Below, one piece after another: positions 1,855 through 19,534 of a DNA stretch of 20,000 nucleotides (positions are counted from its first letter, which is position 1; the number at the start of each line of letters is the position of its first letter). The notes beneath the pieces are model-generated. The model saw only the letters and a list, made by a program, of their open reading frames with translations, had not been told where the DNA came from and did not search any database. Position numbers and translations under genes: made by a program. Source of the stretch: an uncultured virus (IMG/VR IMGVR_UViG_3300029305_012101) (taxonomy: Duplodnaviria; Heunggongvirae; Uroviricota; Caudoviricetes); the IMG/VR virus record IMGVR_UViG_3300029305_012101. One strand, given 5' to 3'.

Positions 1855-2627
1855 TGAATATTGACATCTACATCCGCGAACGCGAAGGCAGCCGGGAGAT
1901 CCGCATCCCCTGGCTGCCGGAGACCATCCTTTTCAAGAGCGGCGGAACCGTCCGGGCAAGCTACGACATCATGAACAAGGGGCCGGCGGAGATCCCGACC
2001 GGCTCCGGCCTTTGTGAATACTCCTGGGAGAGCGTTTTCCCGGGGAAGTACCGGACGGACCGCTCTATGCAGCGGGGAGAATGGCAGGATCCCGCTGCCT
2101 ATCACAACATTCTGGAAGACTGGAAGGCCAAGGGGACGCCGCTGGTGATCCTGGCCGTGGGCTATCCCATCAACAAGGACGTCTATCTGGACGACTACAT
2201 CGGGAAGGCGGCCGGCGGCTTCGGGGACATCGAGTACGAAGTCTCTTTCATTGAGGATCGGGAGATCACCATCTCCTCCACAAAAGAGGCCTCCGGGGGC
2301 GGCACCCAGCGGCCTGCAGCGACAACAACCACCTACACCATCAAGCAGGGTGACACCCTGTGGAGCATCGCCCAGCGGTTTTTGGGCTCCGGCGCCAGGT
2401 GGATCGAGATCTACAACGCCAATAAGGAGATCATCGAGAGCACCGCGAAAAAGCGGTGGAAAGCCGCAGGGATCGACCGCGACAGCCAGAACGGCCACTG
2501 GATCTTCCCGGGGACCGTGATCACCATTCCCGGCGCAAGCGGAACATCTGCAGGCGGAACGACGAAGAGCTCTTCGATCACAAGCGCTGCCGGCAAGAAC
2601 AAGAACGAAATCCTGACCAAGAATTAG
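1854..2627 (+). CDS. xkdP: XkdP-like tail tube initiator/baseplate protein with LysM domain
   Basis: LysM signature TYTIKQGDTLWSIAQRFLGSGARWIEIYNANK...IFPGTVITIP; RBS GGAGG; canonical position after the tape measure. Confidence 0.85.
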   Translation: MNIDIYIREREGSREIRIPWLPETILFKSGGTVRASYDIMNKGPAEIPTGSGLCEYSWESVFPGKYRTDRSMQRGEWQDPAAYHNILEDWKAKGTPLVILAVGYPINKDVYLDDYIGKAAGGFGDIEYEVSFIEDREITISSTKEASGGGTQRPAATTTTYTIKQGDTLWSIAQRFLGSGARWIEIYNANKEIIESTAKKRWKAAGIDRDSQNGHWIFPGTVITIPGASGTSAGGTTKSSSITSAAGKNKNEILTKN

Positions 2628-2637
2628 GAGTGACAGC

Positions 2638-3642
2638 ATGAAGGCATCCGTCAAGAATCCTATCTATACGGTCTACATCGTATCCGGTCAGACCAAATAC
2701 AACCTGACCAACGCGGTGGAGAGTATCGGCTTTTCCGAGCAGAAAAAGCAGATCGCCAAAAGCTGCACCATCGATCTGGTCAACGTGAAGGTCGGCGGAT
2801 CCTGGCTGTCCTCCCTGCTGAAGGTGAGAGACCGGGTATTTATTTACGCGGACGACGGAGAGCGGAGCGAGGAGGTCTGGCGGGGCTACGTTTGGACCCG
2901 CTCCTACCGGTCCCGGCTGGACGGCCACAACCTGACGCTGAAGTGCTACGACAACCTGATCTACTGGCAGGAGAGCGAGGATGCGGAGTTTTTCGCCTCC
3001 GGCAAGAGCACGAAGGAGATTCTTTCCACACTCTGCAGCAAGTGGGGTGTGAAGCTGGAATACAGCTATGAAAGCATTACCCACTCCAAGCTGGCCCTGC
3101 GGGGCACCATGAGCGACATCGTGACCAGCGATGTGCTGGATCTGGTGAAGGACAGAACCGGGAAGAAATACGTCATCACCAGCGAAAAGGACGTGGTGAA
3201 CATCCGCACCATCGGATCCAACAGCCGGGTCTACACGATCAAAAGCGGCCAGAACGCGATCCAGACCAGCAGCGAATGCACCATGGAAGGGATGACCACC
3301 CAGGTGGTGATCCTGGGCAAGGCGGACAAAGAGGACCGCCAGAAGGTGGAGGGAACGGTCTCCGGGAATACCGGAGCCTACGGCACCCTGCAAAAGCTCA
3401 TCACCCGGGACGAAAACACCAGCCTGGATGACACCAAAAAGGAAGCCCAGAGCATCATCGATGCGGACGGGAAGCCCAAGTGGGAGTACGAAATCACGAC
3501 GGTGGACATCCCATGGATCCGAAAAGGAGACAGGGTGAAAGCCAGCGCCGGCGACATGACCAGCACCTACATCGTTGTTGGCATCGACCGGGATCTGAGC
3601 AATTCCAAAAAGCAGATGACGCTGACTGTGGAAAACGCATAA
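2638..3642 (+). CDS. xkdQ: XkdQ-like baseplate hub protein
   Basis: 334 aa, AGGAG RBS, motifs LKCYDNLIY, YGTLQKL, IPWIRKGDRV; position between the LysM gene and the spike gene. Confidence 0.8.
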   Translation: MKASVKNPIYTVYIVSGQTKYNLTNAVESIGFSEQKKQIAKSCTIDLVNVKVGGSWLSSLLKVRDRVFIYADDGERSEEVWRGYVWTRSYRSRLDGHNLTLKCYDNLIYWQESEDAEFFASGKSTKEILSTLCSKWGVKLEYSYESITHSKLALRGTMSDIVTSDVLDLVKDRTGKKYVITSEKDVVNIRTIGSNSRVYTIKSGQNAIQTSSECTMEGMTTQVVILGKADKEDRQKVEGTVSGNTGAYGTLQKLITRDENTSLDDTKKEAQSIIDADGKPKWEYEITTVDIPWIRKGDRVKASAGDMTSTYIVVGIDRDLSNSKKQMTLTVENA

Positions 3643-3654
3643 GGAGGAACGGCC

Positions 3655-4101
3655 ATGAGCAGCAACATCCAGCGGCTGGGCAATACGCTTACCAGCCGCA
3701 TGGCCAAAACGGCAAAGGCGGCGATCCCGGTGACGGTGGAGCTGGGCATCATCAATGGCGATCTGAGCCTGAGCGTGGACAGCCTGCCCGGAAAGATCAG
3801 TCCCAGCGACTACATGGTGGATCTGAGCCTGACCCACGAAACCTACTACACCTACAACGAGCTCTACAACACCGACATGGTCCCTGCCAGGACCTATCAC
3901 AAGCACTACGAAGGCGAGCACAGCGGCCATGAAAGCGGCGACGGCGGCCACAAGCACACCACCGACGGCCTGCACGACCATCGCGTCCCATCCGTTTTCC
4001 GGCGGCTGAAGGCGGGGGATCGCGTACTGGTGATCTGGGTGGGCCATGAGCCGATCATCATCAGCATCGTGGTCGCCGGAGACACCATCACGCCGAATTA
4101 A
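3655..4101 (+). CDS. XkdR-like central spike protein with His-rich loop
   Basis: AAGGAGG RBS; C-terminal LKAGDRVLVIW motif typical of DUF2577/XkdR-like proteins; HxH-rich segment; synteny. Confidence 0.7.
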   Translation: MSSNIQRLGNTLTSRMAKTAKAAIPVTVELGIINGDLSLSVDSLPGKISPSDYMVDLSLTHETYYTYNELYNTDMVPARTYHKHYEGEHSGHESGDGGHKHTTDGLHDHRVPSVFRRLKAGDRVLVIWVGHEPIIISIVVAGDTITPN

Positions 4102-4112
4102 GGAGGGAGAGC

Positions 4113-4583
4113 ATGCCTAATCTGCTGCCGGAAGGCTATGAATATGAAATCATCACCGATGCGGACCGGCTGGAGGAGCAGCCCATCGGCTACCGCAACG
4201 GATCCGCCTTTGACTACGAGATCGGCGACTACCGCCGGGACGGAAAGTACAAGATCCTGGACAGCGACGGCGTGGAAAGCTGGAAGGCATGGGTGATCAA
4301 CTGCATGAGCACCGAGCGGTACAAGCACCTGGCCTACTCCACCGACTTCGGCATCGAACTGGACAAGGTTTTCGCTGCGGGATCCCGGGAGGAAGCGGAA
4401 AGCATCTTGGCCCGGCAGATCACCGAGGCCGTTCTGGCCGACGACTACAAGCGGACGGAATATGTGGAAAGCCTGGAATTTTCCTGGCCGGCACCGGACG
4501 CCATCCTGGTCCGGGCCGTTCTGCACGGCTATGAGGATGTGACGATAGATGTGACGGCCTACATCACCAGAAGGGAGAGCTGA
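4113..4583 (+). CDS. xkdS: XkdS-like (DUF2634) baseplate wedge/sheath initiator protein
   Basis: Motif W..NCMSTERYKHLAYSTDFGIEL...EAESILARQITEAVL matches the XkdS family pattern; RBS AAGGAGG; precedes baseplate J. Confidence 0.85.
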   Translation: MPNLLPEGYEYEIITDADRLEEQPIGYRNGSAFDYEIGDYRRDGKYKILDSDGVESWKAWVINCMSTERYKHLAYSTDFGIELDKVFAAGSREEAESILARQITEAVLADDYKRTEYVESLEFSWPAPDAILVRAVLHGYEDVTIDVTAYITRRES

Positions 4584-4584
4584 C

Positions 4585-6030
4585 ATGGCGGAATTTGTCA
4601 TACCTGAATTTTTACAGCATCACAGCGTGGACGAGGTCCACGAAATCATGAAGAGCATTCTGCCCGCCGACATCGACATCAGCGAAGGCAGCCATGAGTG
4701 GAACAAAACAAGGCCCACGGCGCTGGTCGTGGCGGAGGTCTGCGAGTTTGTTCTGCCGGAGGTGATCAAGCTGATCTTCCCGGAATTCTCCTACGATGAA
4801 TTCCTGGGCTATCACGCCAAAACCCGGAACATGGAGCGGCTGGACGCCACGGCGGCCACAGGCGAGATCACCATCACCGGAGAGATCGGATCGAAAATCC
4901 CCGCCGGGAGCCTCTTTGCCACGGTCTCCATCAACGACGAGCCCTCCATTTCCTACCGGACCACGGAGGACGGGGAGATCACCGACGAGGCCATTGTAAA
5001 GGCTTCAATCCGCTGCATCGAGGAGGGAACTGCCGGAAATGTTGTGAAAAATACGCCGTTTTTCGCAAAAGACCAGATTGATGGTGTTGTTTCCGCAGTC
5101 AATGAAGAGGCGATCCGGTTCAACGAGAAATTGGATCCGCAGTATGCTTCCGGTTTGTTGACCATCACCGGAAAGGTGGGCACGGTCATCCCGGCCGGCA
5201 GCATCTTCTCCTCCCGCTATTCCGACCAGTATCCTAGCGTCCAGTACGAAACGCTGCAGGAGATCGTGATCCCTGCCTGCGTGAGAGTGCGTGTGGAATG
5301 CACGGAAGTCGGCAGCGTCGGCAACACCATCCGGGATACTGTGATCCTGGTGGGCAGTAAGCTGACCGGCATCAAGGCCGTGACCAACGAGGAGCCCATC
5401 ACCGGCGGCACGGAGCGGGAAAGCGACGAATCCCTCCAGGAGCGAATCACGGAATACGACCGGACTCAGGGTGAGAGCTTTGTCGGCAATGTGGCCGACT
5501 ACAAGCGCTGGGCAGAAAATGTGGATGGTGTGGGCGCGGCCATCGTGATCCCAGCTTACGACGACACCGGGCTGGTGACGATCATTATCATCGACGCAAA
5601 CGGCGCCCCTGCAACCGAAGAATTGTGCGAGTCGGTTTATAATTACATTATGAGGCCCGACGACGAAGAAAGCCGTCTGGCTCCCGTCAATGCGTATCTC
5701 TCTGTTATCCCGCCGGAGACGCTGACCATCTGCGTGAAGGCCACGACGGAGTTGGAATATGAGGCGACGCTGGAATCCGTGAAGGCTAATTTCATGGCTG
5801 CTCTGGCTCTGTACATCCCGGAGGCACTTGTGGACAAGGAGATCAAATACTCCCGTATCTGGTCCATTCTTTCTTCTGTGGCAGGTGTAAACGATCATAA
5901 GGGTCTGAAGGTCGGGTTGAAATACAGCGGAGAGAACATCGCCTACGGAACCGGCAATATCCCGATCACGGCCAGACAGCTGCCCATCATCGAGGTGGAA
6001 AATCTGGACCTGACCACTGGATCCGTGTGA
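4585..6030 (+). CDS. xkdT: Baseplate J / XkdT-like protein with internally duplicated domain
   Basis: DISEGS, ATGEITITG..G..IPAG, G..GN, VTNEEPITGGTERESDESLQER, GNVADYKRWA..VDGVG, SVAGVND motifs of Baseplate_J. Confidence 0.9.
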   Translation: MAEFVIPEFLQHHSVDEVHEIMKSILPADIDISEGSHEWNKTRPTALVVAEVCEFVLPEVIKLIFPEFSYDEFLGYHAKTRNMERLDATAATGEITITGEIGSKIPAGSLFATVSINDEPSISYRTTEDGEITDEAIVKASIRCIEEGTAGNVVKNTPFFAKDQIDGVVSAVNEEAIRFNEKLDPQYASGLLTITGKVGTVIPAGSIFSSRYSDQYPSVQYETLQEIVIPACVRVRVECTEVGSVGNTIRDTVILVGSKLTGIKAVTNEEPITGGTERESDESLQERITEYDRTQGESFVGNVADYKRWAENVDGVGAAIVIPAYDDTGLVTIIIIDANGAPATEELCESVYNYIMRPDDEESRLAPVNAYLSVIPPETLTICVKATTELEYEATLESVKANFMAALALYIPEALVDKEIKYSRIWSILSSVAGVNDHKGLKVGLKYSGENIAYGTGNIPITARQLPIIEVENLDLTTGSV

Positions 6031-6041
6031 GGTGAGCGCCT

Positions 6042-6902
6042 ATGAAGCAACAGACGGAGCTGATGCGGCGGATCCTGAAACATGAGATCGCCCAAAAAAT
6101 CATTGATTACGTCTCCCCTATCTACGGAGACAGCTACGTCGCGCTGTGGATCTACGAGGCCATCGGCGTGGCCCTGAGCGAGATCGTCACCATTGCGGAA
6201 AAGCTGCGGTATGAGACCAACCCGATGACCACCACGCTGCTGATGGACTACTGGGAGGATCACTACGGCCTCCACCGGGACAGCCGGCTAACCATGGAAG
6301 ACCGCCGGGAGCGGCTGCTGGAAAAGATCCGGTTCCGCGCCCCCTGCAACCCAGAAAAACTGGCGAAGGCCATGGAGCGGGTGCTGGAGGTGCCGGTGGA
6401 GATCACCGAGAGGGTGGCAAAGAACACCTTCCAGGTGGAGATCATGGATACGGTGGCGGATTTTGGAAAGCTCCTCCACGCCCTCTCTGTCCTGGAAAAG
6501 CGCAAGCCGGCCCATCTCATTTACCGTGTCAACGTGAACAATCCGGTGGACGAAACGGATCTGAAGATGGCGGCCGCTACAACGATGGACGAGCAATACT
6601 CCGTCGGTGTGGAAGCAATCAAGCTGACGCTGCAGACGACTCTGGAAAAAGCCATCCAGCTGGGCGCTGTGGTGACTATGCGAGAGAGTTTTGGCGTTAA
6701 TCCCAACGAAATTGCCATCGAAACCCGGACGGAAATCGAACATGAGGCAAAATTGGCTACTCCCATAGCCGCAAGAGAGGTCTACAACATTACTGACATT
6801 AAACGGACTGCGCGAATCGCAGTGGAGACGGCATTCAAAATCGCCTCCCCGATTTTCAGCAGCGAGGAATTTACCATCGAGGAGGTAAGAACCAATGAGT
6901 GA
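6042..6902 (+). CDS. xkdU: XkdU/YmfQ-like (DUF2313) baseplate protein with repeated C-terminal extension
   Basis: LMDYWEDHYGL...LTMEDRRERL and KPAHLIY motifs; follows baseplate J; RBS GAGGTG. Confidence 0.8.
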   Translation: MKQQTELMRRILKHEIAQKIIDYVSPIYGDSYVALWIYEAIGVALSEIVTIAEKLRYETNPMTTTLLMDYWEDHYGLHRDSRLTMEDRRERLLEKIRFRAPCNPEKLAKAMERVLEVPVEITERVAKNTFQVEIMDTVADFGKLLHALSVLEKRKPAHLIYRVNVNNPVDETDLKMAAATTMDEQYSVGVEAIKLTLQTTLEKAIQLGAVVTMRESFGVNPNEIAIETRTEIEHEAKLATPIAAREVYNITDIKRTARIAVETAFKIASPIFSSEEFTIEEVRTNE

Positions 6903-7698
6903 CATCATCGAAATCCCCAACTCCTGGAAGGCGGGCGTCATCACCAACGACGGTCTGGGCCTGCTGAGTAAACTGGTGAAGGGTCATACCCTGAACATCA
7001 TCAGAGCAGAGATCGGCGCCGGCTGGGTGGATCCCGAGCAGCTGAACACCCTGAAGGCCGTCATGGAGCCTATGCAGGCGCTGTCCTTCTCCACAGTGAG
7101 CTACCCGGAGGAAGGCAAGTGCGTTATCCCCTGCAAACTGGACAACAGCAATGTGACGGAAAGCTACATCGGCCGACAGATCGGCCTGTACGCCCAGGAT
7201 CCCGACAAGGGCGAGATCCTGTTCTACGTTACCCAGGTGGAGGACGAGGACGGCGGCACCGGCATCCCCGCAAACAACATTATCCCCAGTTATTCTGCTA
7301 CCTGGAACCTGGTGATCTACTACGGCATGGCCGATGGCGTGGACGTGACTGTGGATCCCGCAAGTTCCGTTACCCATGAGGAAATGGAGCAGTTTGTGGA
7401 GGACGCTCTGGAAGGCTTCCAGGAGGACATGCGCCCGGCCACCAACGAAGAGATCGACGCTGCTCTGGGTTCCTATTCCGGCGGCGAAGGTGGCGGAGAC
7501 ATGGGCTTTACCGTGCCTCTGGACCACACACTCCTGTTCAACCGCGATGCGGAGGATCAGCACCCCATCGAGTCTATCACCGGTCTGGAGGAAGCTCTGG
7601 ACAAATTGGAGGATATGGCAGAAGACGATGGCGGCCCGGTCATGACGGACGGCGAAATCGACGACGTGTGGAACAACATAATGGGTGAAGGTGTGTAA
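6895..7698 (+). CDS. Tail fibre baseplate-anchoring protein (tail-collar/fibre N-terminal domain)
   Basis: W..GVITNDGLGLL...IG.G and RQIGLYAQDPDKGEILFY motifs typical of fibre N-termini; QHPIESITGLEEAL tail-repeat motif; RBS GGAGGT. Confidence 0.75.
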   Translation: MSDIIEIPNSWKAGVITNDGLGLLSKLVKGHTLNIIRAEIGAGWVDPEQLNTLKAVMEPMQALSFSTVSYPEEGKCVIPCKLDNSNVTESYIGRQIGLYAQDPDKGEILFYVTQVEDEDGGTGIPANNIIPSYSATWNLVIYYGMADGVDVTVDPASSVTHEEMEQFVEDALEGFQEDMRPATNEEIDAALGSYSGGEGGGDMGFTVPLDHTLLFNRDAEDQHPIESITGLEEALDKLEDMAEDDGGPVMTDGEIDDVWNNIMGEGV

Positions 7699-7727
7699 GC
7701 GCACATAGCATTATTTTTCCACTAAAA

Positions 7728-7810
7728 TTGCGCTTTAAGCGCAAATTCAAGTCAGCAACCGGGTAAACCCGGTAAATATATAGCTGAAACAAAAAATATT
7801 TTTTGGAGGT
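7728..7810. promoter_or_regulatory. AT-rich intergenic region with three palindromes and strong RBS
   Basis: TTGCGCTT-T-AAGCGCAA (7728-7744), ACCGGG-TAAA-CCCGGT (7758-7773), perfect CAAAAAATATTTTTTG (7790-7805) abutting GGAGGT. Confidence 0.45.
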
Positions 7811-7819
7811 AATTTTACC

Positions 7820-8722
7820 ATGGCAGAAGTCAAGTATGTATCCCAGGCTAATCTGAGCAGAATCCTGGGTAAGATCAAGGAAACCTACGTTGCCAAGGAG
7901 ACCGGCAAGGGTCTGTCCACCAACGACCTGACCAACGAGCTGCTGTCCAAGATCAACGGTATGGGTACTGTCGCCACTCTGAACGAGATCGGCGAGAGCA
8001 ACCTGTCCGCTGCCCTGCTGGAGAAGGTCAACGCCTCTGCTGAGGGCAACCACAGCCACGCCAACAAGGAGCTGCTGGACACCTACACCCAGACCGAGGC
8101 CAACCTGGCTGACGCTGTCGCCAAGAAGCACAGCCACGCCAACGCTGAGGAACTGGCAAAGATCGCTTCTGGCGACAAGGCCAAGTGGGATCAGGCCGTC
8201 ACTGACCTGGCTGCCGTTGTGGCCGACTACCTGAAGACCTCTGACAAGGAGGCCCTGCAGGCTCTGATCACCGCTCTGGATGGCCGCGTGACCATCAATG
8301 AGCAGGGCATCGCCACTCTGAACGGCAACTCCAGCGTTGAGGGCTCCGTTGACAAGAAGATCGCCGACGCGATCAACGCCTGGGCCGCTCAGGTGACTGA
8401 CGACGGCACCATCAACACCTACAAGGAGGCCCTGGAGTACATCGCCGCTCACGGCGGTGAGTACACCACTCTGCTGGGTGAGGTCACTCAGAACAAGAAC
8501 GCCATCGCTACCCTGAACGGCGACGCTTCCACCGCTGGCTCCGTTGCCAAGCAGGTCGCTGACGGCGACGCTGCTACCCTGGCTGCTGCCAATGAGTACA
8601 CCAACGGCAAGGACACCGCTATGGGCGCCCGCGTGAAGGCTATCGAGGATGACTACGTCAAGGCTTCCGAGCTGGTGGCATTCACCGATGCGGAGATCGA
8701 CGAGATCTGGGTCAACGCCTAA
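7820..8722 (+). CDS. Coiled-coil fibre/structural protein (tail or head fibre subunit)
   Basis: 300 aa; KETGKGLSTND, HSHAN repeats, IATLNG...GSV.K repeats seen in phage fibre proteins; strongly biased codon usage; RBS GGAGGT. Confidence 0.65.
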   Translation: MAEVKYVSQANLSRILGKIKETYVAKETGKGLSTNDLTNELLSKINGMGTVATLNEIGESNLSAALLEKVNASAEGNHSHANKELLDTYTQTEANLADAVAKKHSHANAEELAKIASGDKAKWDQAVTDLAAVVADYLKTSDKEALQALITALDGRVTINEQGIATLNGNSSVEGSVDKKIADAINAWAAQVTDDGTINTYKEALEYIAAHGGEYTTLLGEVTQNKNAIATLNGDASTAGSVAKQVADGDAATLAAANEYTNGKDTAMGARVKAIEDDYVKASELVAFTDAEIDEIWVNA

Positions 8723-8744
8723 GCAATAGGCGACTAATCTTAAT

Positions 8745-8818
8745 CCGGCCCCCGGCGTAATGCTGGGGGCCGGGTGATAAGATGCGGGGAACACCCGCTA
8801 TGTGTGGGGATTCCCGCA
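8745..8818 (+). promoter_or_regulatory. Two GC-rich intergenic stem-loops lacking a U-tract (mRNA stabiliser/partial terminator)
   Basis: CCGGCCCCCGGC-GTAAT-GCTGGGGGCCGG (8745-8773) and TGCGGGGA...TTCCCGCA (8783-8818) between the 7820 and 8833 genes. Confidence 0.55.
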
Positions 8819-8832
8819 GAAAGGAGATTACA

Positions 8833-9363
8833 ATGCCTATTAAGTATGTGAGCCAGGATAACCTGACCCGGGTGCTTTCAAAACTCAAAACTTTGATCGG
8901 CACCAAGGCGGATGCAACCCATGACCACGCTGCCGGCGACATCAAATCCGGCACCCTGTCCAGTGATCGGCTACCCATCGTGCCCATTTCAAAGGGCGGC
9001 ACAGGCGCTGCAACCGCAGAAGAGGCGAGAAAGAGCCTGGCCATCACACCGGAAAACATCGGCGCAGCCAGCGCAAGTGCAGTCTCTGCAAAATATAACG
9101 AGTCTATTATCGGATTGTCCGTGGACGGGCAGACCGTTACATATATCAAGGGTGACGGGTCCGTGCATTCTTTCCAGACTCAGGACACCGATACGACCTA
9201 CTCCATCGGAACCGACCAGGCGACCGGCCTGACAAAACTGTACGCCACTACTGGATCCGCTGAAGATGGAACCATGACCCAGAAGGCGATCAAAACCGAA
9301 CTGGACAAAAAGGTGGGAGTGGAGGTAGACACCACACAGAACGCCTTGATTTTCAAGATTTAA
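8833..9363 (+). CDS. Tail fibre segment protein
   Basis: Start at ATG 8833 after AAGGAG (ORF-track start 8782 is too early); H.H.AGDIKSGTL...P+SKGGTGA.TA..AR..L motif typical of fibres; TGLTKLY..TG...DGTMTQKAI. Confidence 0.7.
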   Translation: MPIKYVSQDNLTRVLSKLKTLIGTKADATHDHAAGDIKSGTLSSDRLPIVPISKGGTGAATAEEARKSLAITPENIGAASASAVSAKYNESIIGLSVDGQTVTYIKGDGSVHSFQTQDTDTTYSIGTDQATGLTKLYATTGSAEDGTMTQKAIKTELDKKVGVEVDTTQNALIFKI

Positions 9364-9385
9364 TTAGAAAAGGGGAAACAGTAAT

Positions 9386-10621
9386 ATGGCTCATTCCGCT
9401 AATATTATCAGCTCTATCAAGCTGCCCAACGGGACTACCTACGAGATCCATGACGCACAGGCCATCCACAAAATCGAAGATCTTGGCCTTGCTTCCGTCC
9501 TGAAATTTAAGGGAACCCAGGCCAGCGAGTCCGCAGTCCATGCGCTGACTTCCGCAGAAGTGGGCGACGTGTATCTGGCGGGCGGTGCGGAGTATGTGTG
9601 CATTGAGGCGATCTCCGGCACTGCAAAGGCATCCGCCTGGGAGAAACTGGGCAACGTCCACGATGCCGCAGCTTCCAACCACACTCACACCACCACCGTG
9701 ACCGGCACCAACGCGGCATCCACCGTGACCGGCACCGTGACCGTGCCCACCGTCAGCAAAACACAGAAGTATCTGTCCGCTGCGGCAGGCGTACCTACCG
9801 TGACTCCGGTTACAGACACCGTTCTGGGCACCGGCACCACGTTTGCCGTCTCCGGCGGCGCAGCCAACGCAACCAAAACCAAGATCGGTGCCACTGCAAG
9901 CGGCGCAGCTGTTGGTGCAAACGGAACAGCCAAGGCTATCACCGCCCTGGGCACTCCTACCACCGCTGCGGCCATCACCGCGCTGAATACCACCACCGTC
10001 AAGAATCCCACCGTTACTCCGGTGAGCATTCCCAACGTGACCGGTAACTCCGCTGTGACCGCTACCAAGATGTCCAGCTACGGCACTCTGCCTTCCTGGA
10101 GCGCTTCCGTTTCCGATGGTGTGCTGTCCTTCTCCTTCGGCGCAGGCACTCTTCCCACCGGTTCCGACGTGTCCGCTTCCAAGGTGACTCTGGGCACCGC
10201 TCTGAGCGCCTCCAGCGTGAGCACTTCCGATGTGACCGTGGCTACCGGCTCCAAGAGCACCGCCAACGCCATCACCGGCTTCGGCACTCATACCACCGCC
10301 AATGCTCTGACCGGCGTGAAGATGACCGCCCAGCCTACCATCACCCTCAGCGCTGACGCTACTACCGGCGTGGATGTCGTGATCGATGTGTCCAATTCCG
10401 CCATCTCTGTTACGGCAAGCGGCGACAACGTGACCGCTATGACCGGCGTGACGGTTGGTGCCCCTGCAATTACTCTGACAAACAACTCCTCCAGCGTGAC
10501 CGGTTCCGTGCCCGTTGTTTCCGCTGTGGAAATTGGCTCTGCTTCTGCAAGCCTGACCAACGGCTCTGCTGCAGCTCAGAAGTGGACCCAGGCCAGCGGA
10601 ACTACCAGCACTCCCAAGTAA
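9386..10621 (+). CDS. Thr/Ser/Ala/Val/Gly-rich fibre protein
   Basis: 411 aa; LKFKGT...VGDVYL..G.EYV...WEKLG domain followed by long low-complexity beta-strand-like region; located in fibre cluster. Confidence 0.65.
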   Translation: MAHSANIISSIKLPNGTTYEIHDAQAIHKIEDLGLASVLKFKGTQASESAVHALTSAEVGDVYLAGGAEYVCIEAISGTAKASAWEKLGNVHDAAASNHTHTTTVTGTNAASTVTGTVTVPTVSKTQKYLSAAAGVPTVTPVTDTVLGTGTTFAVSGGAANATKTKIGATASGAAVGANGTAKAITALGTPTTAAAITALNTTTVKNPTVTPVSIPNVTGNSAVTATKMSSYGTLPSWSASVSDGVLSFSFGAGTLPTGSDVSASKVTLGTALSASSVSTSDVTVATGSKSTANAITGFGTHTTANALTGVKMTAQPTITLSADATTGVDVVIDVSNSAISVTASGDNVTAMTGVTVGAPAITLTNNSSSVTGSVPVVSAVEIGSASASLTNGSAAAQKWTQASGTTSTPK

Positions 10622-10663
10622 TCCGGGCGCGGATCGAATTTTGTAGAAAAGGAGGGGGCATAA

Positions 10664-11353
10664 TTGTCAATCTCTCAAATTAAAATCGGCAGCGATACCC
10701 ATGACATCGTTGCCGGCGCCAATATTTACTGCACCTGTGGCACTGCCGCCGCTACAGCGGCGAAAGTAGCAACAGTTGTCGCCGGTAAATTCAGTCTGTT
10801 CACCGGCGCCCGGGTTATCGTCAAATTCACATATGCCAACAGCGCAGCTACCCCGACATTGAACGTCGGCGGGACTGGTGCTAAGTCGATTATGCGATAT
10901 GGCTCTACCGCCATTAGTACCGGAACGACCACCTCCGGATGGAGCGCAGGAGCTATTCAGGCGTTCACTTACGATGGTACAAACTGGGTGCAAGACTACT
11001 GGTACAACAGCACCTATAGCAACGCCTCTCTGGGTCAGGGCTACGGCACCTGCTCCACTGCTGCAGCAACGACCGCAAAGGTGGTTACATTGAGCAGTTA
11101 TTCGTTGACTACTGGCGGCGTGGTTGCCGTTAAGTTCACCTATGCCGTGCCTGCCAATGCAACCATGAATATCAACAGTAAGGGTGCAAAGTCCATTTAC
11201 CACCGAGGGGCGGCCATCACCGCAGGCATTATTAAGGCGGGTGACATTGCAATATTTATCTACAACGGCAGCCAGTATCATCTGCTGGGCATAGATGATA
11301 TTCCCGTCGTAGCTACCACCGACCAGATCGACGAGATCTGGAACAACGCCTGA
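10664..11353 (+). CDS. Fibre-associated protein made of two tandem beta-sandwich-like repeats
   Basis: TTG start after AAGGAGG; two copies of Y.TC.TAAAT.AKV...SL.TG..V.VKFTYA....T+N+...GAKSI...AG.I..F.Y+G..; C-terminal IDEIWNNA. Confidence 0.7.
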   Translation: MSISQIKIGSDTHDIVAGANIYCTCGTAAATAAKVATVVAGKFSLFTGARVIVKFTYANSAATPTLNVGGTGAKSIMRYGSTAISTGTTTSGWSAGAIQAFTYDGTNWVQDYWYNSTYSNASLGQGYGTCSTAAATTAKVVTLSSYSLTTGGVVAVKFTYAVPANATMNINSKGAKSIYHRGAAITAGIIKAGDIAIFIYNGSQYHLLGIDDIPVVATTDQIDEIWNNA

Positions 11354-11373
11354 TTTAGAAAGGAGGCCATACA

Positions 11374-12507
11374 ATGGCACAAACATTTATTGATTTGAAC
11401 GGCCTGGCCCATGCTTTCAGCAAGGTTAAGGCGTTGGTTGCCACCAAGGCCAACGCCGATCTCAGTAATGTGGGCAAGGATACTCTTGCCGCTGCGGTGG
11501 AGGAGGCCGGCATTAAGAATTACACTCACCCCACCACCAGCGGCAACAAGCATATCCCCTCTGGCGGTTCTTCCGGCAAAATCCTGAAGTGGTCTGCTGA
11601 TGGTACAGCAGTCTGGGGCGATGAAAAAAGCATTACCGTGGACAGCGCTCTTTCCAGCAGCTCCACCAACCCCGTGCAGAACAAGGTGGTCAAGGAAGCT
11701 CTGGACGGCAAGATGTCCAGCGACGGCGGCAATATGGGCGGAGAGCTGGTTTTCAACACTTCCGATGGCGGTGTGCAACTGGCAAACCCGTATGCCAACG
11801 GCAGAAAAGGCTACATTACCCAGCCTGCAAACGGTGAAATTGAGATCAAAAACCATGTGGGTTCCGGCAACGATTTTACTGCTCTGCAGCTGAAGCCCGA
11901 AGGCTACAACGGCGTGAACTTCCTGCGGGCGCTGCGTATGAGCGGCGGTGTGCAGACAGGCTACGACGTGCTCCACACCGGCAATATCAGAGAACATGCG
12001 GCGGAGAAGGAACACGACCATACTGCTGCCGATGTAGGCGCCGTGCCCACGGGCGGCGTGGATAAGGATTTTTCCGAATACACTACCTGGGCCGATCTTC
12101 TGAGCGCACTGCCCGTCGGCAGCGTAACAATGGTGCGGATCGCTGAGATCAACGATGAGTTGGTGCCTGCCGAGTGCCCGAACACTTCCTGGGCCAGTTT
12201 CGTGATCAGAAAGCCGAACACTGTCTACCAGACCTGTTCCGTGACGCTGCATGCCTATACTGAGAATGGGCCCCGCGTTTTTGAAGCAATTTTTGCTCAG
12301 GGTACTGCTGCAGTATCCTGGATGGAAGTCGCGGCTGTAGGCCACACCCAGGCTGCCAGCACCATCACCGCCGGCACCTTCGGCGGTCAGGTGGTAGCCA
12401 ACGCCTCCAACCAGACCCCCGGCACCAGCCTGATCCGCAACACCAAGCTGGTCTCCGCAGACACCACGCCCACCGTCAACGGCGAAATCAACTGGACGTA
12501 CAAGTAA
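11374..12507 (+). CDS. Distal tail fibre protein
   Basis: AAGGAGG RBS; NYTHPTTSGNKHIPSGGSSGKILKW, VDSALSSSSTNPVQNKVV, VLHTGN, H.HTAADVGAVP fibre motifs; ends TPTVNGEINWTYK. Confidence 0.75.
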   Translation: MAQTFIDLNGLAHAFSKVKALVATKANADLSNVGKDTLAAAVEEAGIKNYTHPTTSGNKHIPSGGSSGKILKWSADGTAVWGDEKSITVDSALSSSSTNPVQNKVVKEALDGKMSSDGGNMGGELVFNTSDGGVQLANPYANGRKGYITQPANGEIEIKNHVGSGNDFTALQLKPEGYNGVNFLRALRMSGGVQTGYDVLHTGNIREHAAEKEHDHTAADVGAVPTGGVDKDFSEYTTWADLLSALPVGSVTMVRIAEINDELVPAECPNTSWASFVIRKPNTVYQTCSVTLHAYTENGPRVFEAIFAQGTAAVSWMEVAAVGHTQAASTITAGTFGGQVVANASNQTPGTSLIRNTKLVSADTTPTVNGEINWTYK

Positions 12508-12521
12508 GGAGGTGCTGATCT

Positions 12522-13007
12522 ATGGCACATGGAACATTGATCGGCGGCACCGCTTATGAGATCAGCGGAGGCAGAACGCTGGTGGGCGGCACCGGGTACA
12601 GCATCGACAAGGGCAAGACTCTGGTGGATGGGACTGGGTATGAGGTGCCATTTGTAGAAAATGTGCAGTTAAGGCTCGAATTTACAGCAGGAAAAGATAA
12701 TGACAGATATCGCTATGTTGAGGTCAATGGGTCCAAATATTACACTGGAACAATTACCTTGGACGTGCCGGTAGGAACAAGTGTGTATATCTATAACCAA
12801 ACCGGAGATAGGCACACAACGTATCTGGACTATGACGATGAAGAGTGCAATTACTATCCCAAAATTTATGATCGGATTAACGGGATAACGTTGGATTACG
12901 AATTCGGGTATACTTTTGCAATAACAGTTTCTGCTAATATTTTTTGGAAATTTGAAGACAGAGCCCCGTACCAGTGTTACTGTAACGTCAATATCATACC
13001 AATTTAA
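12522..13007 (+). CDS. Putative fibre-tip/receptor-binding protein with AT-rich variable C-terminal domain
   Basis: AAGGAGGTG RBS; N-terminal triple repeat TL(I/V)(G/D)GT(A/G)Y.(I/V); C-terminal two thirds aromatic-rich and encoded by visibly lower-GC DNA. Confidence 0.6.
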   Translation: MAHGTLIGGTAYEISGGRTLVGGTGYSIDKGKTLVDGTGYEVPFVENVQLRLEFTAGKDNDRYRYVEVNGSKYYTGTITLDVPVGTSVYIYNQTGDRHTTYLDYDDEECNYYPKIYDRINGITLDYEFGYTFAITVSANIFWKFEDRAPYQCYCNVNIIPI

Positions 13008-14263: not shown

Positions 14264-14557
14264 ATGAGATCGAAGCCGATGGAGACCAGCAAGAAGATCC
14301 TGGCCGGCAGCTGGGCGGCAGCCCTGACGCTGACGGCCATCGTGATCGTGGGCACCTTCCTTCAGGTGGACGTGACCAACCTGACCATTCTGGCCGGGGC
14401 GGCCTGGACGGAGCTGACCGCCGCCCATGGCTTCTACTACTGGAAAGCCAAGAACGAAAACCGGTCCAAGGGCATTCAAACGCTCTTGACAGATATGGCG
14501 GGAAAATACGGCATCGACGCCGTTGCCCGCATTGCAGAATTGATTTTTAAGGAGTGA
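14264..14557 (+). CDS. Holin-like membrane protein (two TM helices)
   Basis: ETSKKIL + two hydrophobic helices + GFYYWKAKNEN motif; AAGGAGG RBS. Confidence 0.65.
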   Translation: MRSKPMETSKKILAGSWAAALTLTAIVIVGTFLQVDVTNLTILAGAAWTELTAAHGFYYWKAKNENRSKGIQTLLTDMAGKYGIDAVARIAELIFKE

Positions 14558-14562
14558 AGACC

Positions 14563-14865
14563 ATGGAACTGATTCTGGATTGTCTCGCCGAGATCGCTGG
14601 CCTTCTGGTCGGCGCATGCGTCGTGTACCTGGCCAAGGTGGCCGGCGGCTACATCAAAGAGCAGCGGCTGCAGAAGTTCATCAACTCCCTGGTGAAAGCC
14701 GCGGAGCAGCTGTACGACAAGGAGATCGACGACACCGGCGAGATCCGCCTGGCCTACGTCGAGTCCATGGTGGAGGACGCCGGCTACAAGCTGACCTCCG
14801 CCGTCAGAGCCTACATCGAAAGCAAGGTCTACGACCTGAACTACGCGCAGAAGAAAAACAACTGA
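14563..14865 (+). CDS. Holin, LL-H family-like
   Basis: One N-terminal TM helix then LVKAAEQLY...GE.RLAYV...IESKVY pattern; ATG 14563 suits RBS AAGGAG at 14549 (GTG 14554 is the alternative start). Confidence 0.7.
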   Translation: MELILDCLAEIAGLLVGACVVYLAKVAGGYIKEQRLQKFINSLVKAAEQLYDKEIDDTGEIRLAYVESMVEDAGYKLTSAVRAYIESKVYDLNYAQKKNN

Positions 14866-14879
14866 GAGGATGATCCCGC

Positions 14880-15644
14880 ATGACAGAACAGCAGCTTAGA
14901 CAGAAAGTAGTATCTATTATGGAGGGCTGGCTGGGATGTAAGGAGTCCGATGGGAGCCATCGGAAGATCATTGATACATACAACGCCCACACGCCCCGGG
15001 CCCGCGGCTACAAGGTGACATACACCGACGCATGGTGCGCCACGGCCGTCTCCGCCGCCTTCATCAAGGCGGATATGGTGGACATCGGGCCGGCAGAGTG
15101 CAGCTGCAGCAAGATGATCGATCTGTACAAGAAGAAGGGTCGGTGGCAGGAACACGATGGTTACAAGCCGCAGGCCGGCGACGTGATCTTCTACGACTGG
15201 GACGACCTGGGCGTCGGGGAATGCACCGGAGCGCCGGAGCACGTCGGCATCGTTGCCTCCGTGAGCGGCAGCACCATGAAGATCATCGAGGGCAACCTGA
15301 GCAACGCGGTGGGCTACCGCAATCTGGCCATCAACGGCCGATTCATCCGGGGCTACGGCCTGCCGGACTACGCCAGCAAGGTGATCGCCCCCAACAACCC
15401 CGCTGCCAAGGCGGACCCCGCACGATCCTTCGAGCGCGCCTACGCCAAGACCTACACGGTGACGGCATCCGCGCTCAACCTACGCATGGGCGCCAGCACC
15501 AAGAAGAGCATCATCAAAGCCCTCCCCAACGGCAGCAAAGTGACATGCTACGGCTACTACACCAAGACCGGAGAGACCACATGGCTGTTGGTGAAGGACA
15601 GCACCGGAACCGTCGGGTTCTGCTCAAAGAAATATCTGAAGTAA
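14880..15644 (+). CDS. Endolysin: CHAP domain + C-terminal SH3b cell-wall-binding domain
   Basis: Catalytic AWCATAVS, PQAGDVIFYDW, HVGIV, IEGN, IRGYGLP; C-terminal VTASALNLRMGAST...IIKALPNGSKV...W...GFCSKKYL. Confidence 0.9.
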   Translation: MTEQQLRQKVVSIMEGWLGCKESDGSHRKIIDTYNAHTPRARGYKVTYTDAWCATAVSAAFIKADMVDIGPAECSCSKMIDLYKKKGRWQEHDGYKPQAGDVIFYDWDDLGVGECTGAPEHVGIVASVSGSTMKIIEGNLSNAVGYRNLAINGRFIRGYGLPDYASKVIAPNNPAAKADPARSFERAYAKTYTVTASALNLRMGASTKKSIIKALPNGSKVTCYGYYTKTGETTWLLVKDSTGTVGFCSKKYLK

Positions 15645-16033: not shown

Positions 16034-16185
16034 GGGAGGAGTTGATCTCCCAGCCGCCCGCCTGCCGGGGCGTAGAGTCCGGCAGGGGCCAACCTCCCGG
16101 GCCGACACGGAGAGCGGCCGCCTGACAAGGGCTGGAACGGTTTACGGAGGAGCGATCCTCACGACGATATATGGGAGGAATTGAT
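16034..16185 (+). ncRNA. Candidate structured 5' leader RNA
   Basis: Multiple stems (16061-68/16079-86; 16100-04/16115-19; enclosing 16050-55/16130-35; GAGGA-GCGA-TCCTC GNRA hairpin 16147-60) between promoter and RBS; no family recognised. Confidence 0.45.
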
Positions 16186-16186
16186 T

Positions 16187-17323
16187 ATGACTAACAGTAT
16201 CAAGTTTTTCTGGAACGGCATTCGTGTCAACGGTGAAAAGAGCCTGATCAAGGTGAGCTACAGCCTGGACAACCACCGGGATCACGCTGAGTGCGTGACC
16301 ATCTACGCCGATGGCTACGGCAGCCGGCTGCCCCGGGACGTCTTCGAGGTCCACAATGAGACCGACCTCTACACCGACTACTTCGAAAACGACAGAGCGG
16401 TTCTGACTCCCGCCCATCCCCTTTACAAGTACGCCCGGTATGCTGCGGTGAAGGCCAAGATCCACGACCTGAAGGGCTACATCAAGTACAAAACGTATTA
16501 TATGGAGAAAAATCCTCAGATGGCCGCCAGATACAATTATGCTGACGAGATCAACCGCAGCATGAAGGAGCTGGCTGAGCTGGAAGCCATCAAAAATCCC
16601 GGCCATCCCACTGCCGAGGATCTGGCTGAGATCGCCCGGGTCCGCATGGAGGCTGAGAACGCCCGGATTGCTGCCGAGCATGAGGCTGAGCTGAAGGCCC
16701 GCGAGGAGCGCCAGCGGAAGCAGAATGAGGGCCGCCGCTTCATCGAGAAGGTTGCCCAGGAGCACCCGATCTGCGAGGGTGAGCCCGTCGTGACCATCAA
16801 CTGGAGCGAGCATCCCGCCTTCTACAGCTGGGAGGATGGCGAACTGAAGCTGTCTGTGGCCGCTGCTGAGATCATCCTGACCCACTTTGACAAGGAAGTC
16901 CACGCGGATGGGGACCGCGGCTACGACAAGACCTCTTTCACCATCGAGTTTGTGAACGAGGACGGCGAGCAGGACACCTACGAGGGGCGCTATGATCTGG
17001 GCGACAACGATGGCGGCATGATCGAGCACATCCGCGCCTGGGGCCGTTTCCTCCTTGAAAAAGGCAGCTACGGCAACGGCAAGCCCACCGAGGACGACAT
17101 CGAGACCGGCCGGGCGATCATCCGTTTCGCCGACTTCCTGGCCCGTCACGCCGATGTGGACTCCATGAGCGACGAGGATCTGATGGTGGAGGTGCTGAAG
17201 ATCAGCCCGAACGACATCACGAGGAGACCTCTGGCTGAGTTTTACATCACGGTTCTGTCCCGCCGGGACATCCGGCTGGCCAGGGAGGCATACAGAATGT
17301 GGAAGAAGGAGGCGCTGGCATGA
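16187..17323 (+). CDS. Multidomain accessory protein with LPD25-like (large polyvalent protein-associated) domain
   Basis: ATG 16187 after GGGAGG; PVVTINWSEHP...GYDKTSFTIEF...TYEGRYDLGDNDGGMIEHIR resembles LPD25; central coiled coil; N-terminal domain unknown. Confidence 0.65.
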   Translation: MTNSIKFFWNGIRVNGEKSLIKVSYSLDNHRDHAECVTIYADGYGSRLPRDVFEVHNETDLYTDYFENDRAVLTPAHPLYKYARYAAVKAKIHDLKGYIKYKTYYMEKNPQMAARYNYADEINRSMKELAELEAIKNPGHPTAEDLAEIARVRMEAENARIAAEHEAELKAREERQRKQNEGRRFIEKVAQEHPICEGEPVVTINWSEHPAFYSWEDGELKLSVAAAEIILTHFDKEVHADGDRGYDKTSFTIEFVNEDGEQDTYEGRYDLGDNDGGMIEHIRAWGRFLLEKGSYGNGKPTEDDIETGRAIIRFADFLARHADVDSMSDEDLMVEVLKISPNDITRRPLAEFYITVLSRRDIRLAREAYRMWKKEALA

Positions 17324-18404: not shown

Positions 18405-19154
18405 ATGGCGAAAAGAGTGCAAGAAACAGCCCGCCCGTTTACGAAGAAGATCCTGTCTCTGACCGGGCGGTTCCCGATCTGGGAGATCTGGTCCGACTTC
18501 ATCTATATGACGGCCGTGGCCATTTCCAACGCCGTGGATCCGTCCCACTTCGAGGTCAGGGAGAAGGAATACCTGAAGATCATCGGGAAATACAATGAGA
18601 AGGAGCGCATGGTATTTCCTGAGTTGCTGGGAGAGCTGGTGATGGCCCTGGAGAAGAACCAGGAGCAGGACTTCCTGGGCAGCGTGTACATGGAGCTGGA
18701 GCTGGGAAACCACTGGATCGGCCAGTTCTTCACGCCCTACAGCGTCTGTCAGCTGATGGCTGATGTCACAAGCGAGGACGCAGCCGAGCAGATCCGGGAG
18801 AAGGGCTTCATCACCATCAACGACTGCGCCTGCGGAGCCGGTGCCACGCTGATCGCCGGCATCCACAGCATCCGCAGGATCCTGGAGAAGGAGGGCCTGA
18901 ACTGGCAGGATCACCTGCTGGTGACGGCCCAGGATCTGGACATGGTGACGGGTCTGATGTGCTACATCCAGATGTCCCTCCAGGGGGCCGCCGGATATGT
19001 TAAGATCGGGAATACAATAACGGATCCCATGAATTCAGGGGACAGCCTGGAGAACTACTGGTTTACCCCGGTGTACTTTTCTCAGACCTGGGCGCTGCGG
19101 CGCCTGTTCTATGGTGCCAGCGCTGAGAAAAACAACCTCCGCCAGCCGGCTTAA
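18405..19154 (+). CDS. Short N6-adenine DNA methyltransferase-like protein (HsdM-like SAM-binding half)
   Basis: DFLGSVYMEL, GQFFTPYSVCQLMA, INDCACGAGATLIA (motif I), AQDLD, GNTI; no NPPY/F motif; AAGGAGG RBS. Confidence 0.75.
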   Translation: MAKRVQETARPFTKKILSLTGRFPIWEIWSDFIYMTAVAISNAVDPSHFEVREKEYLKIIGKYNEKERMVFPELLGELVMALEKNQEQDFLGSVYMELELGNHWIGQFFTPYSVCQLMADVTSEDAAEQIREKGFITINDCACGAGATLIAGIHSIRRILEKEGLNWQDHLLVTAQDLDMVTGLMCYIQMSLQGAAGYVKIGNTITDPMNSGDSLENYWFTPVYFSQTWALRRLFYGASAEKNNLRQPA

Positions 19155-19494: not shown

Positions 19495-19534
19495 GGTATC
19501 GCTCCTTCCGTTGATTTGTGGGGCCGCGCCGGTA

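Follow-up and report, generated by a model that had tools for sequence, protein, structure and literature searches.

In the long tail fibre of phage T4 the products of consecutive genes, gp34, gp35, gp36 and gp37, are joined end to end in a non-covalent manner, a monomeric knee protein being part of the fibre, and we know of no recurrent peptide pair in this assembly. In polyketide synthases and nonribosomal peptide synthetases (PKS/NRPS), short C- and N-terminal docking domains that match each other decide which of the successive gene products bind, and specificity classes are proven. Here we describe a locus of terminal peptides that recalls both systems, found in a stretch of 20,000 nucleotides (nt) from an uncultured virus of the Caudoviricetes (IMG/VR record IMGVR_UViG_3300029305_012101), which is called the window throughout. 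Seven co-directional genes on the plus strand at positions 6895–13007, named after their starts at 6895, 7820, 8833, 9386, 10664, 11374 and 12522, probably encode a segmented tail fibre that is chained by docking peptides, an acidic C-terminal peptide (socket) of one protein receiving the basic N-terminal peptide (plug) of the next. Multi-protein fibres and N-terminal docking peptides are already known. No description of this end-to-end peptide pair was found in the open-access literature searched, and Pfam, NCBIfam, PHROG and PDB sequence searches gave neither a family model nor a solved structure for it. The gene order and one modelled joint fit end-to-end joining of the T4 type; the difference from the T4 long tail fibre is that one short pair is reused here at successive joints and across phages. 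Homology to T4 gp34, gp35, gp36 or gp37 was not detected in Pfam and PHROG scans or in a PDB sequence search with three of the proteins. The likeness to PKS/NRPS docking domains is an analogy only.

Several other described systems come close. In podophages of Klebsiella, namely KP32, K11 and KP34, a branching domain of the receptor-binding protein RBP1 has its counterpart in a docking peptide conserved at the N-terminus of RBP2 (PMC6872550, PMC13352976). There a receptor-binding protein with a gene of its own is reported to hang on another one by this short peptide, in a modular, swappable fashion, and to the peptide the plugs at amino acids (aa) 4–20 of the 7820, 8833 and 11374 proteins are analogous, not homologous; scans with Pfam, PHROG and NCBIfam revealed no sequence relation to the Klebsiella system. 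The Klebsiella socket is reported to be a folded domain, the branching domain within RBP1, and to take one or two partners, whereas in the window both partners are short terminal peptides, the modelled receiver of the plug being a terminal peptide of about 20 residues, and they would join end to end, at serial joints, in myovirus-type phages of gut Bacillota. A branching domain like that of T4 gp10 was also absent from Pfam, PHROG and NCBIfam scans of all seven proteins, the fold comparison covering the 6895 protein. For Pa193 a joint has been described in which the tape measure's C-terminus and the N-terminus of the tail tip form a 3+3 helix bundle (PMC11456595), and in the F-type pyocin the stem helices of the side fibre occupy grooves on a coiled coil of acidic character (PMC13455828). 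In both, C-terminal helices of one trimer and N-terminal helices of another make a six-helix bundle, with acidic/basic complementarity in the pyocin, as proposed below for the window; these are other proteins at other tail positions and single joints, and a portable motif pair at gene boundaries is not described in the passages concerned. The receptor-binding trimers of phi812 are fixed by short docking loops, which a separate scaffold protein provides (PMC13433997).

Three of the seven proteins end in an acidic peptide of the consensus T-x-x-E/Q-I-D-x-I/V-W, called type I. The 6895 protein (267 aa; 6895..7698) carries TDGEIDDVW at aa 251–259 (nt 7645–7671; charge -4), eight residues from its end, while TDAEIDEIW of the 7820 protein, fibre segment 1 (300 aa; 7820..8722), at aa 289–297 within the socket ELVAFTDAEIDEIW (nt 8669–8710), and TTDQIDEIW of the 10664 protein, a two-domain fibre protein with a TTG start (229 aa; 10664..11353), at aa 218–226 (nt 11315–11341), are both three residues from the end. 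Each time the next gene opens with a basic plug: KYVSQANLSRILGKIK in the 7820 protein (aa 5–20; nt 7832–7879; charge +4), KYVSQDNLTRVLSKLK in the 8833 protein, fibre segment 2 (176 aa; 8833..9363; plug at aa 4–19, nt 8842–8889, charge +3), and TFIDLNGLAHAFSKVK in the 11374 protein, the distal fibre protein (377 aa; 11374..12507; plug at aa 4–19, nt 11383–11430, charge +1). The plugs share the consensus K-Y-V-S-Q-x-N-L / T-F-I-D-L-N-G-L, and the charges range from -3 to -5 for the acidic ends and from +1 to +4 for the basic starts. An earlier note on this DNA had pointed out these three successions, and all the peptides it quoted are present. A fourth acidic copy, ATNEEIDAAL, lies inside the 6895 protein (aa 182–191; nt 7438–7467). 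The start of the 8833 gene is at 8833, behind AAAGGAG, and not at the upstream ATG at 8782. At the three junctions the 28 nt that code for the motif are just 68–79% identical and the intergenic stretches, 122, 111 and 21 nt long, have no relation to each other, so the recurrence is at the peptide level; the same two observations rule out a recent DNA duplication of the junctions. A regulatory role of the 122- and 111-nt gaps was also considered and rejected, one promoter-like and eight terminator-like sites being found there, not above shuffled sequences.

How might such ends hold a fibre together? The terminal pairs probably clip the fibre pieces to each other, as conservation and the model of one joint suggest. 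In the proposed assembly, socket ends of the form ...T-D-x-E-I-D-x-I/V-W, an acidic strand plus helix, would be joined by proteins with the basic strand-plus-helix plug K-Y-V-S-Q-x-N-L-x-R-x-L-x-K-x-K, three C-terminal peptides of one trimer interlocking with three N-terminal peptides of the next. The strands ELVAF and KYVSQ would pair and the helices DAEIDEIW and NLTRVLSKLK would pack as a six-helix bundle of complementary charge. By type I joints the chain would run from the 6895 protein through 7820 to 8833, and the 10664 protein would carry 11374. For the joint between 7820 and 8833 a complex was modelled from three copies each of the C-terminal 80 aa of the former and the N-terminal 80 aa of the latter, with 11-row alignments. 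The interaction prediction score from aligned errors (ipSAE) of this 3+3 model was 0.82, 0.82 and 0.81, whereas none of three controls scored above 0.00; among solved complexes 116 of 157 attain the ipSAE mark and among mismatched pairs 2 of 215 do, counts that hold only roughly for own alignments and six chains. At least 97% of the contacts are common to the runs, with a predicted local distance difference test (pLDDT) value of 95 for the partner. On the 7820 piece the interface consists of V60, S63–F68, D70, E72, I73, I76, W77, N79 and A80 (numbered within the 80 aa) and on the 8833 partner of residues 1–19, so that the two sides are exactly the two motifs. Residues 65–68 contact residues 4–9, and residues 70–77 contact residues 8–17 of two different partner copies; this contact list suggests a geometry of strand pairing plus an interdigitated helix bundle. 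Since no PDB chain resembles either peptide profile by sequence (best E-values of 0.28 and 0.35, which is noise), it is not evident that the model recalls a solved complex.

Conserved adjacency in other phages argues for the same pairing. The sample comprised 255 sources with 2.95 Mb and 13,890 open reading frames (ORFs) of at least 50 aa; labels with L denote loci or contigs compared (L072 is Faecalibacterium phage FP_Brigit and L073 is FP_Taranis) and labels with P database homologues of the 6895 protein. With regular expressions for the two motifs, 106 ORFs end in the C-terminal and 114 begin with the N-terminal one, and 82 pairs (41 distinct) of a socket end and a plug start are adjacent, 0–121 nt apart, where a hand estimate from these counts expects about 0.5 by chance. 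The earlier note had suggested testing for such adjacency across Clostridia phages; it occurs in at least nine divergent lineages. Loci L039–L071 were retrieved with the N-terminal peptide as query, their upstream acidic ends not being part of it. Among them two AT-rich phages (L040, L041) have two joints each, with the acidic motif closing the product of the upstream gene, for example ...VTNIEIDNLFN followed by MSTVKYVDLDGLSHFK..., the same protein ending in ...LTNNEIDTIFS followed by MPTIKYADLNSLSRFK...; in about 20 contigs (L042–L071) collagen-like, 312-aa and 99-aa proteins are chained likewise. Retrieval independent of the motifs also yielded joints, namely via the N-terminal domain of the 6895 protein in L155, L075 (two) and L114 (two), and via the 10664 domain in L235 (two), L248 and L250 (two). 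The type I consensus pair recurs in L040–L070, L075, L114, L235 and L250 and in homologues of the 11374 protein. Moreover, the motifs keep to the ends of the proteins: of the strict C-terminal motifs 44 of 47 lie within 14 aa of the end and 56 of 78 strict N-terminal motifs in the first 25 aa, the 22 internal ones being unrelated sequences, for instance in Baseplate_J, and a socket and a plug following one another inside one chain were found in none of 7156 ORFs or proteins. Taken as connectors, the joints are likely to be real and widespread. Two side observations concern their spread: type I joints occur in a Negativicutes prophage (L114, a Phascolarctobacterium metagenome-assembled genome, 8909–9998), and the body domain of the middle protein in L041 matches crAss-like phages and an archaeal virus, that of Methanomassiliicoccales (30.8% over 85% of the query), so modules, and perhaps connectors, cross wide host boundaries.

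Could the conserved termini instead be module boundaries at which fibre cassettes are swapped by recombination, with no contact between the proteins? The fibre genes are indeed mosaic, one and the same plug preceding unrelated bodies (compare the distal genes of L040 and L041), and contig L001, after sharing 7264 nt with the window at 100% identity, departs from it within the 9386 gene. Against this stands the motif-coding DNA itself, which at 68–79% identity over 28 nt is too little alike for homologous recombination and shows selection on the peptide. Phages rich in AT and phages rich in GC, too, retain the peptides while using different codons for them. A recombination linker, furthermore, need not sit exactly at the stop and the start codon and would not be replaced by direct fusion, as happens in homologues of the 6895 protein (see below), and the complex model gives a confident and specific interface. 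We regard a boundary of this kind as quite improbable.

The first protein of the proposed chain ties it to the virion. The 6895 gene lies directly downstream of genes for Baseplate_J (4585–6030; Pfam PF04865, 3.5e-65) and a Mu gp48/P2 gpI-like protein (6042–6902; PF10076, 9.1e-20), overlapping the latter by 8 nt, and thus occupies the position of P2 gpH and Mu gp49, in which the N-terminal adaptor of a tail fibre stands beside gpJ/gpI-like genes. Its product is a baseplate adaptor like gp8 and gp105 and not a fibre. It consists of a gp8/gp105-like domain at about aa 10–169, the internal acidic motif, a linker rich in Gly, a small module of helices and, at the end, the socket; aa 10–169 match positions 4–163 of the 480-position PHROG family phrog_7037 'tail fiber protein' (E 1.8e-30), and the structure model reaches a pLDDT of about 90 for aa 10–142 (69.8 for the whole). 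In a comparison of this domain with VIA-align, in which a Z under 8 can reflect a common arrangement, the best match was the tail chain of the Haloferax virus HFTV1 (9h4p_BD; Z 8.7, root mean square deviation (rmsd) 2.9, 124 residues aligned), followed by A511 gp105 (6hhk_A; Z 7.0, rmsd 3.7, 105 aligned), the phi812 arm segment (9fko_A; Z 6.7), the fibre-tail adaptor of GP4 (Z 6.7), phiKZ gp139 (Z 6.5) and T4 gp8 (1n7z_A; Z 5.5). All of the top ten rows are phage baseplate or fibre-adaptor chains (Z 5.5–8.7), and the first unrelated row has Z 4.2. T4 gp8, A511 gp105, the phi812 arm segment and the GP4 adaptor thus share the fold of the N-terminal domain (Z 5.5–7.0), but the acidic C-terminal socket, as far as could be seen, is no part of them. 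The 6895 adaptor would sit on the baseplate beside the gpJ/gpI-like wedge proteins and, instead of running into a fibre, end in its socket.

Homologues of the adaptor behave as docking predicts. Among 92 of them, 45 have an EID-type end and 14 an end of the type ATDxEVxxxxxxF by regular expression (59 of 92), by eye about 10 more end in the EID type, and about 22 continue directly into fibre domains, so the adaptor is either fused to the fibre or ends in a socket. In one homologue (P0084) the adaptor domain is joined in one chain, which has neither peptide, to a tip that resembles the 11374 one and closes with NGEINWTYK. Homologues of about 180 aa stop just past the motif that is internal in the 6895 protein, and tandem sockets with linkers rich in Gly, Ser and Asp are common (P0018–P0034, P0033, P0064), such that one adaptor could hold two partners and the fibre could branch. 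Among the first 38 adaptor loci the strict regular expressions matched in no more than four contigs, all of them identical to the window, the distant relatives there having single fused fibres. As a side observation, in L075 (317–1565) an adaptor of 182 aa is followed by a 101-aa gene and by a 125-aa gene with a DHNKLQNRNLPDQH module, which in the window is fused into the 6895 protein as LDHTLLFNRDAEDQH; given the separate genes in L075, the window adaptor looks like a fusion of two genes.

A further way to read the peptides is as tags for an assembly chaperone, or as termini of one trimer that fold back on each other. Tail fibres often need chaperones, and plug and socket occur together in 46 of the best 120 of 1996 database proteins that match the 11374 protein (E ≤ 0.001, mostly over its N-terminal part). 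Yet no chaperone family is among the family-library matches in the locus, and proteins with a socket alone (the adaptor and, in L042, the collagen-like protein) precede proteins with a plug alone (8833, 11374 and, in L042, the 99-aa protein), so that the two motifs are usually on different proteins. Tags or a fold-back are a highly improbable account. Side observations on the 11374 homologues are that one is named 'Head fiber protein' by its source and several carry PF11133. In addition, terminal fibre proteins close with a common strand, G-x-[ILMV]-x-[WFLY]-x-[YVI]-[EK], as in NGEINWTYK of the window, GKMYLVYE, NTIWLEVSE and GMWVEIVE (L042 4093–4692 and 6295–6594, and many database hits), which may be a chain-ending element.

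Several observations weigh against a fibre chained by docking peptides. The binding of plug to socket is supported by the model, and hence as a prediction, in which own, shallow alignments of 11 rows were used in a six-chain job unlike the calibration of the tool and the controls were unrelated proteins only. In L075 the adaptor ends in ...SIAEIDEVTPI, yet the next gene starts with MRRGTTPTIW; a second socket in L248 is without a called downstream partner, the partner in L176 is deviant, and one pair in L235 is 231 nt apart with a small ORF in between. As many loci are inter-related and L039–L071 were found by the N-terminal peptide, the counts overstate independence, and as adjacent motifs are co-inherited, class-consistent pairing could reflect shared ancestry. 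Moreover, the 7820 protein and many homologues of 11374 combine plug and socket of one type and could, lacking further specificity, polymerise with themselves, which a simple chain does not explain; something must prevent such self-joining, or the chains must be promiscuous or branched.

How specific are the joints? The earlier note had proposed a code of orthogonal peptide pairs. The docking part of that idea is supported, in that the termini behave as docking peptides by conserved adjacency, terminus lock and the model. Orthogonality among the three EID-W joints, and within type I in the window altogether, is not visible, since the plugs of 7820 and 8833 and their partner C-terminal peptides differ only conservatively. 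This leads to an alternative in which the docking is the same but generic, any plug fitting any socket of its class, so that alternative or branched fibre sets arise and the gene order reflects co-inheritance. The near identity of the 7820 and 8833 plugs, and of the 6895 and 7820 sockets, would suit it, as would the numbers in the window (four acidic motifs for three plugs, and one NALIF end, described below, for two matching starts), the common tandem sockets of the adaptor homologues and the resemblance, in most phages, of the middle protein's own plug to that of the next gene. In the L042 family and L068, by contrast, and only there, two clearly different sub-types occur in one phage: one joint has ...N-M-D-I-D-A-I-F, at the very end, with ...GLKYFKTKQDA and the other ...S-Q-T-E-I-D-T-C/A-F-A with ...GLKYAVSKIK, a difference that would block self-joining, and the strict gene-order adjacency in every lineage fits an ordered chain. 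Generic docking is on this balance unlikely, though it has to be reckoned with.

Beyond type I there are further classes of such end-to-start pairs. In type II an end of the form ATDxEVxEMLxxVF/Y is followed by a start K-L-x-x-L-x-x-L, with three joints in FP_Brigit (gp25, gp27 and gp28), two in FP_Taranis (gp65 and gp66) and one in L122. The FP_Taranis chain leads from an annotated tail fibre gene, just after P2 J-/I-like genes, towards a protein that is the target of a diversity-generating retroelement (DGR). It is observed besides that this chain (6128–7768) ends beside a DUF6273 protein, the one with the DGR-target annotation, and that a gene for a reverse transcriptase follows at a distance of 1.2 kb, whereby connectors and DGRs may act on the same fibre, and that the chain of FP_Brigit from gp25 to gp29 (5844–10201) sits between terminase and portal genes, outside the tail module, whereby the same connectors may also mount head or neck appendages.

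In type III an NALxF end is followed by a start I-x-x-I...G-x-x-Y-x-I-x-D. The transition from 8833 to 9386 is of this type, the end ...TTQNALIFKI within VEVDTTQNALIF (nt 9319–9354) preceding ...IISSIKLPNGTTYEIHD (nt 9404–9454) of the 9386 gene, which encodes a Ser/Thr-rich fibre protein (411 aa; 9386..10621). The 10664 protein begins with the related ISQIKIGSDTHDI (nt 10670–10708), so that the N-terminus which the earlier note ascribed to both proteins is indeed shared. A joint of the NALIF end with the start I-x-S-I-K...T-Y-E-I-x-D would attach 9386, and perhaps 10664, to 8833. The V-x-D...L-x-F strands that had been assigned to the upstream neighbours of these two proteins are borne out at the first place, where VEVDTTQNALIF lies two residues from the end of the 8833 protein, and not at the second, where ASVSDGVLSF is internal in the 9386 protein (aa 240–249 of 411; nt 10103–10132). 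No further ISxIK start was present outside this phage in the first 233 sources; later they were seen in L238, L244 and L245. L238 and L245 have ends of the type ...NTL(R/K)FY... and ...SDNALVFT... before the starts ...NLSKIVDDSGDEYLIK and ...ELNKIVDDGGEVFNLRD, and in L244 the end ...EDDNLTFTTN is followed by ...AISSITLPSGTTYDLHD and then by a 10664-like gene starting with ...IKQINVNNTTYDLVD. The 9386-like and 10664-like pair with the same N-termini is present in L244/L243, so this gene order is conserved, and the internal element of 9386 has a loosely conserved counterpart there (YSVSGEVLTIG). The 10664 domain has 21 relatives in other phages, several within proteins that bear type I plugs and sockets. 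A side observation at the 9386 gene is that contig L001 (6783–9578), after its identity with window positions 2604–9867, gives a 931-aa ORF whose new C-terminal part has a HEFTH zinc-protease-like motif, which reflects either a chimeric assembly or the natural exchange of a fibre body while an N-terminus of about 160 aa was retained.

A third junction had been seen between NGEINWTYK (nt 12478–12504), which is the extreme end of the 11374 protein, and the TLxGGTxY repeats, three of which open the 12522 protein (161 aa; 12522..13007; repeats at nt 12534–12647). Both elements are there as described; for their pairing, the first 233 sources offered no support in any other phage. The 12522 protein, with no family match and no relative in the 232 other sources of that set, may be a tip, an accessory protein or an assembly factor. 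It is possible, with the chances rather against it, that phages of gut Bacillota, and some others, share a portable set of terminal connectors with at least three classes (EID, ATDxEV and NALxF) and possibly sub-specificities within type I, by which modules self-assemble into segmented, branched fibres and tandem-socket adaptors carry several fibres. Were this so, the wiring of host recognition on a virion could be read from gene termini and re-plugged at will.

If the peptides are connectors, thousands of 'hypothetical' gut-phage proteins could be annotated as fibre segments; many of the 1996 proteins that match 11374 alone begin and end with the pair, and the order of assembly would be readable from sequence. 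Bodies could be exchanged while ends of about 20 residues are kept, which would explain mosaic fibre loci, and the pair would offer a compact natural trimer-to-trimer connector for studying how host recognition is mounted on phages of gut commensals, a group that is difficult to work with.

The window covers the tail end of a prophage of a PBSX/Mu-type myovirus, has 52–61% G+C and matches a single named phage, FP_Brigit (76.6% over 47 residues). A probable tape-measure gene ends at 1854 and is followed, according to family-library scans, by genes for a LysM protein and a YqbQ-like protein, and then by a gp25-like sheath initiator (4113–4583; PF10934, 9.4e-19), which, like the Baseplate_J and gp48/gpI-like genes downstream, is on the plus strand and belongs to a PHROG baseplate family. 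All seven fibre genes are preceded by a Shine-Dalgarno-like sequence. Six of the seven products are without a Pfam, NCBIfam or informative PHROG family, matches in the ESM Atlas are to unnamed clusters only, and a PDB sequence search with three of them returned nothing relevant. Downstream lie a holin-like gene, which stays under the Pfam cut-off, and a CHAP/SH3 lysin (14554–15644), and a host-like gene for an M32 carboxypeptidase begins at 19518. Past the lysis genes, a gene for an LPD25-domain protein (16181–17323) and a short N6_Mtase-like ORF (18405–19154) are probably prophage cargo near the attachment end.

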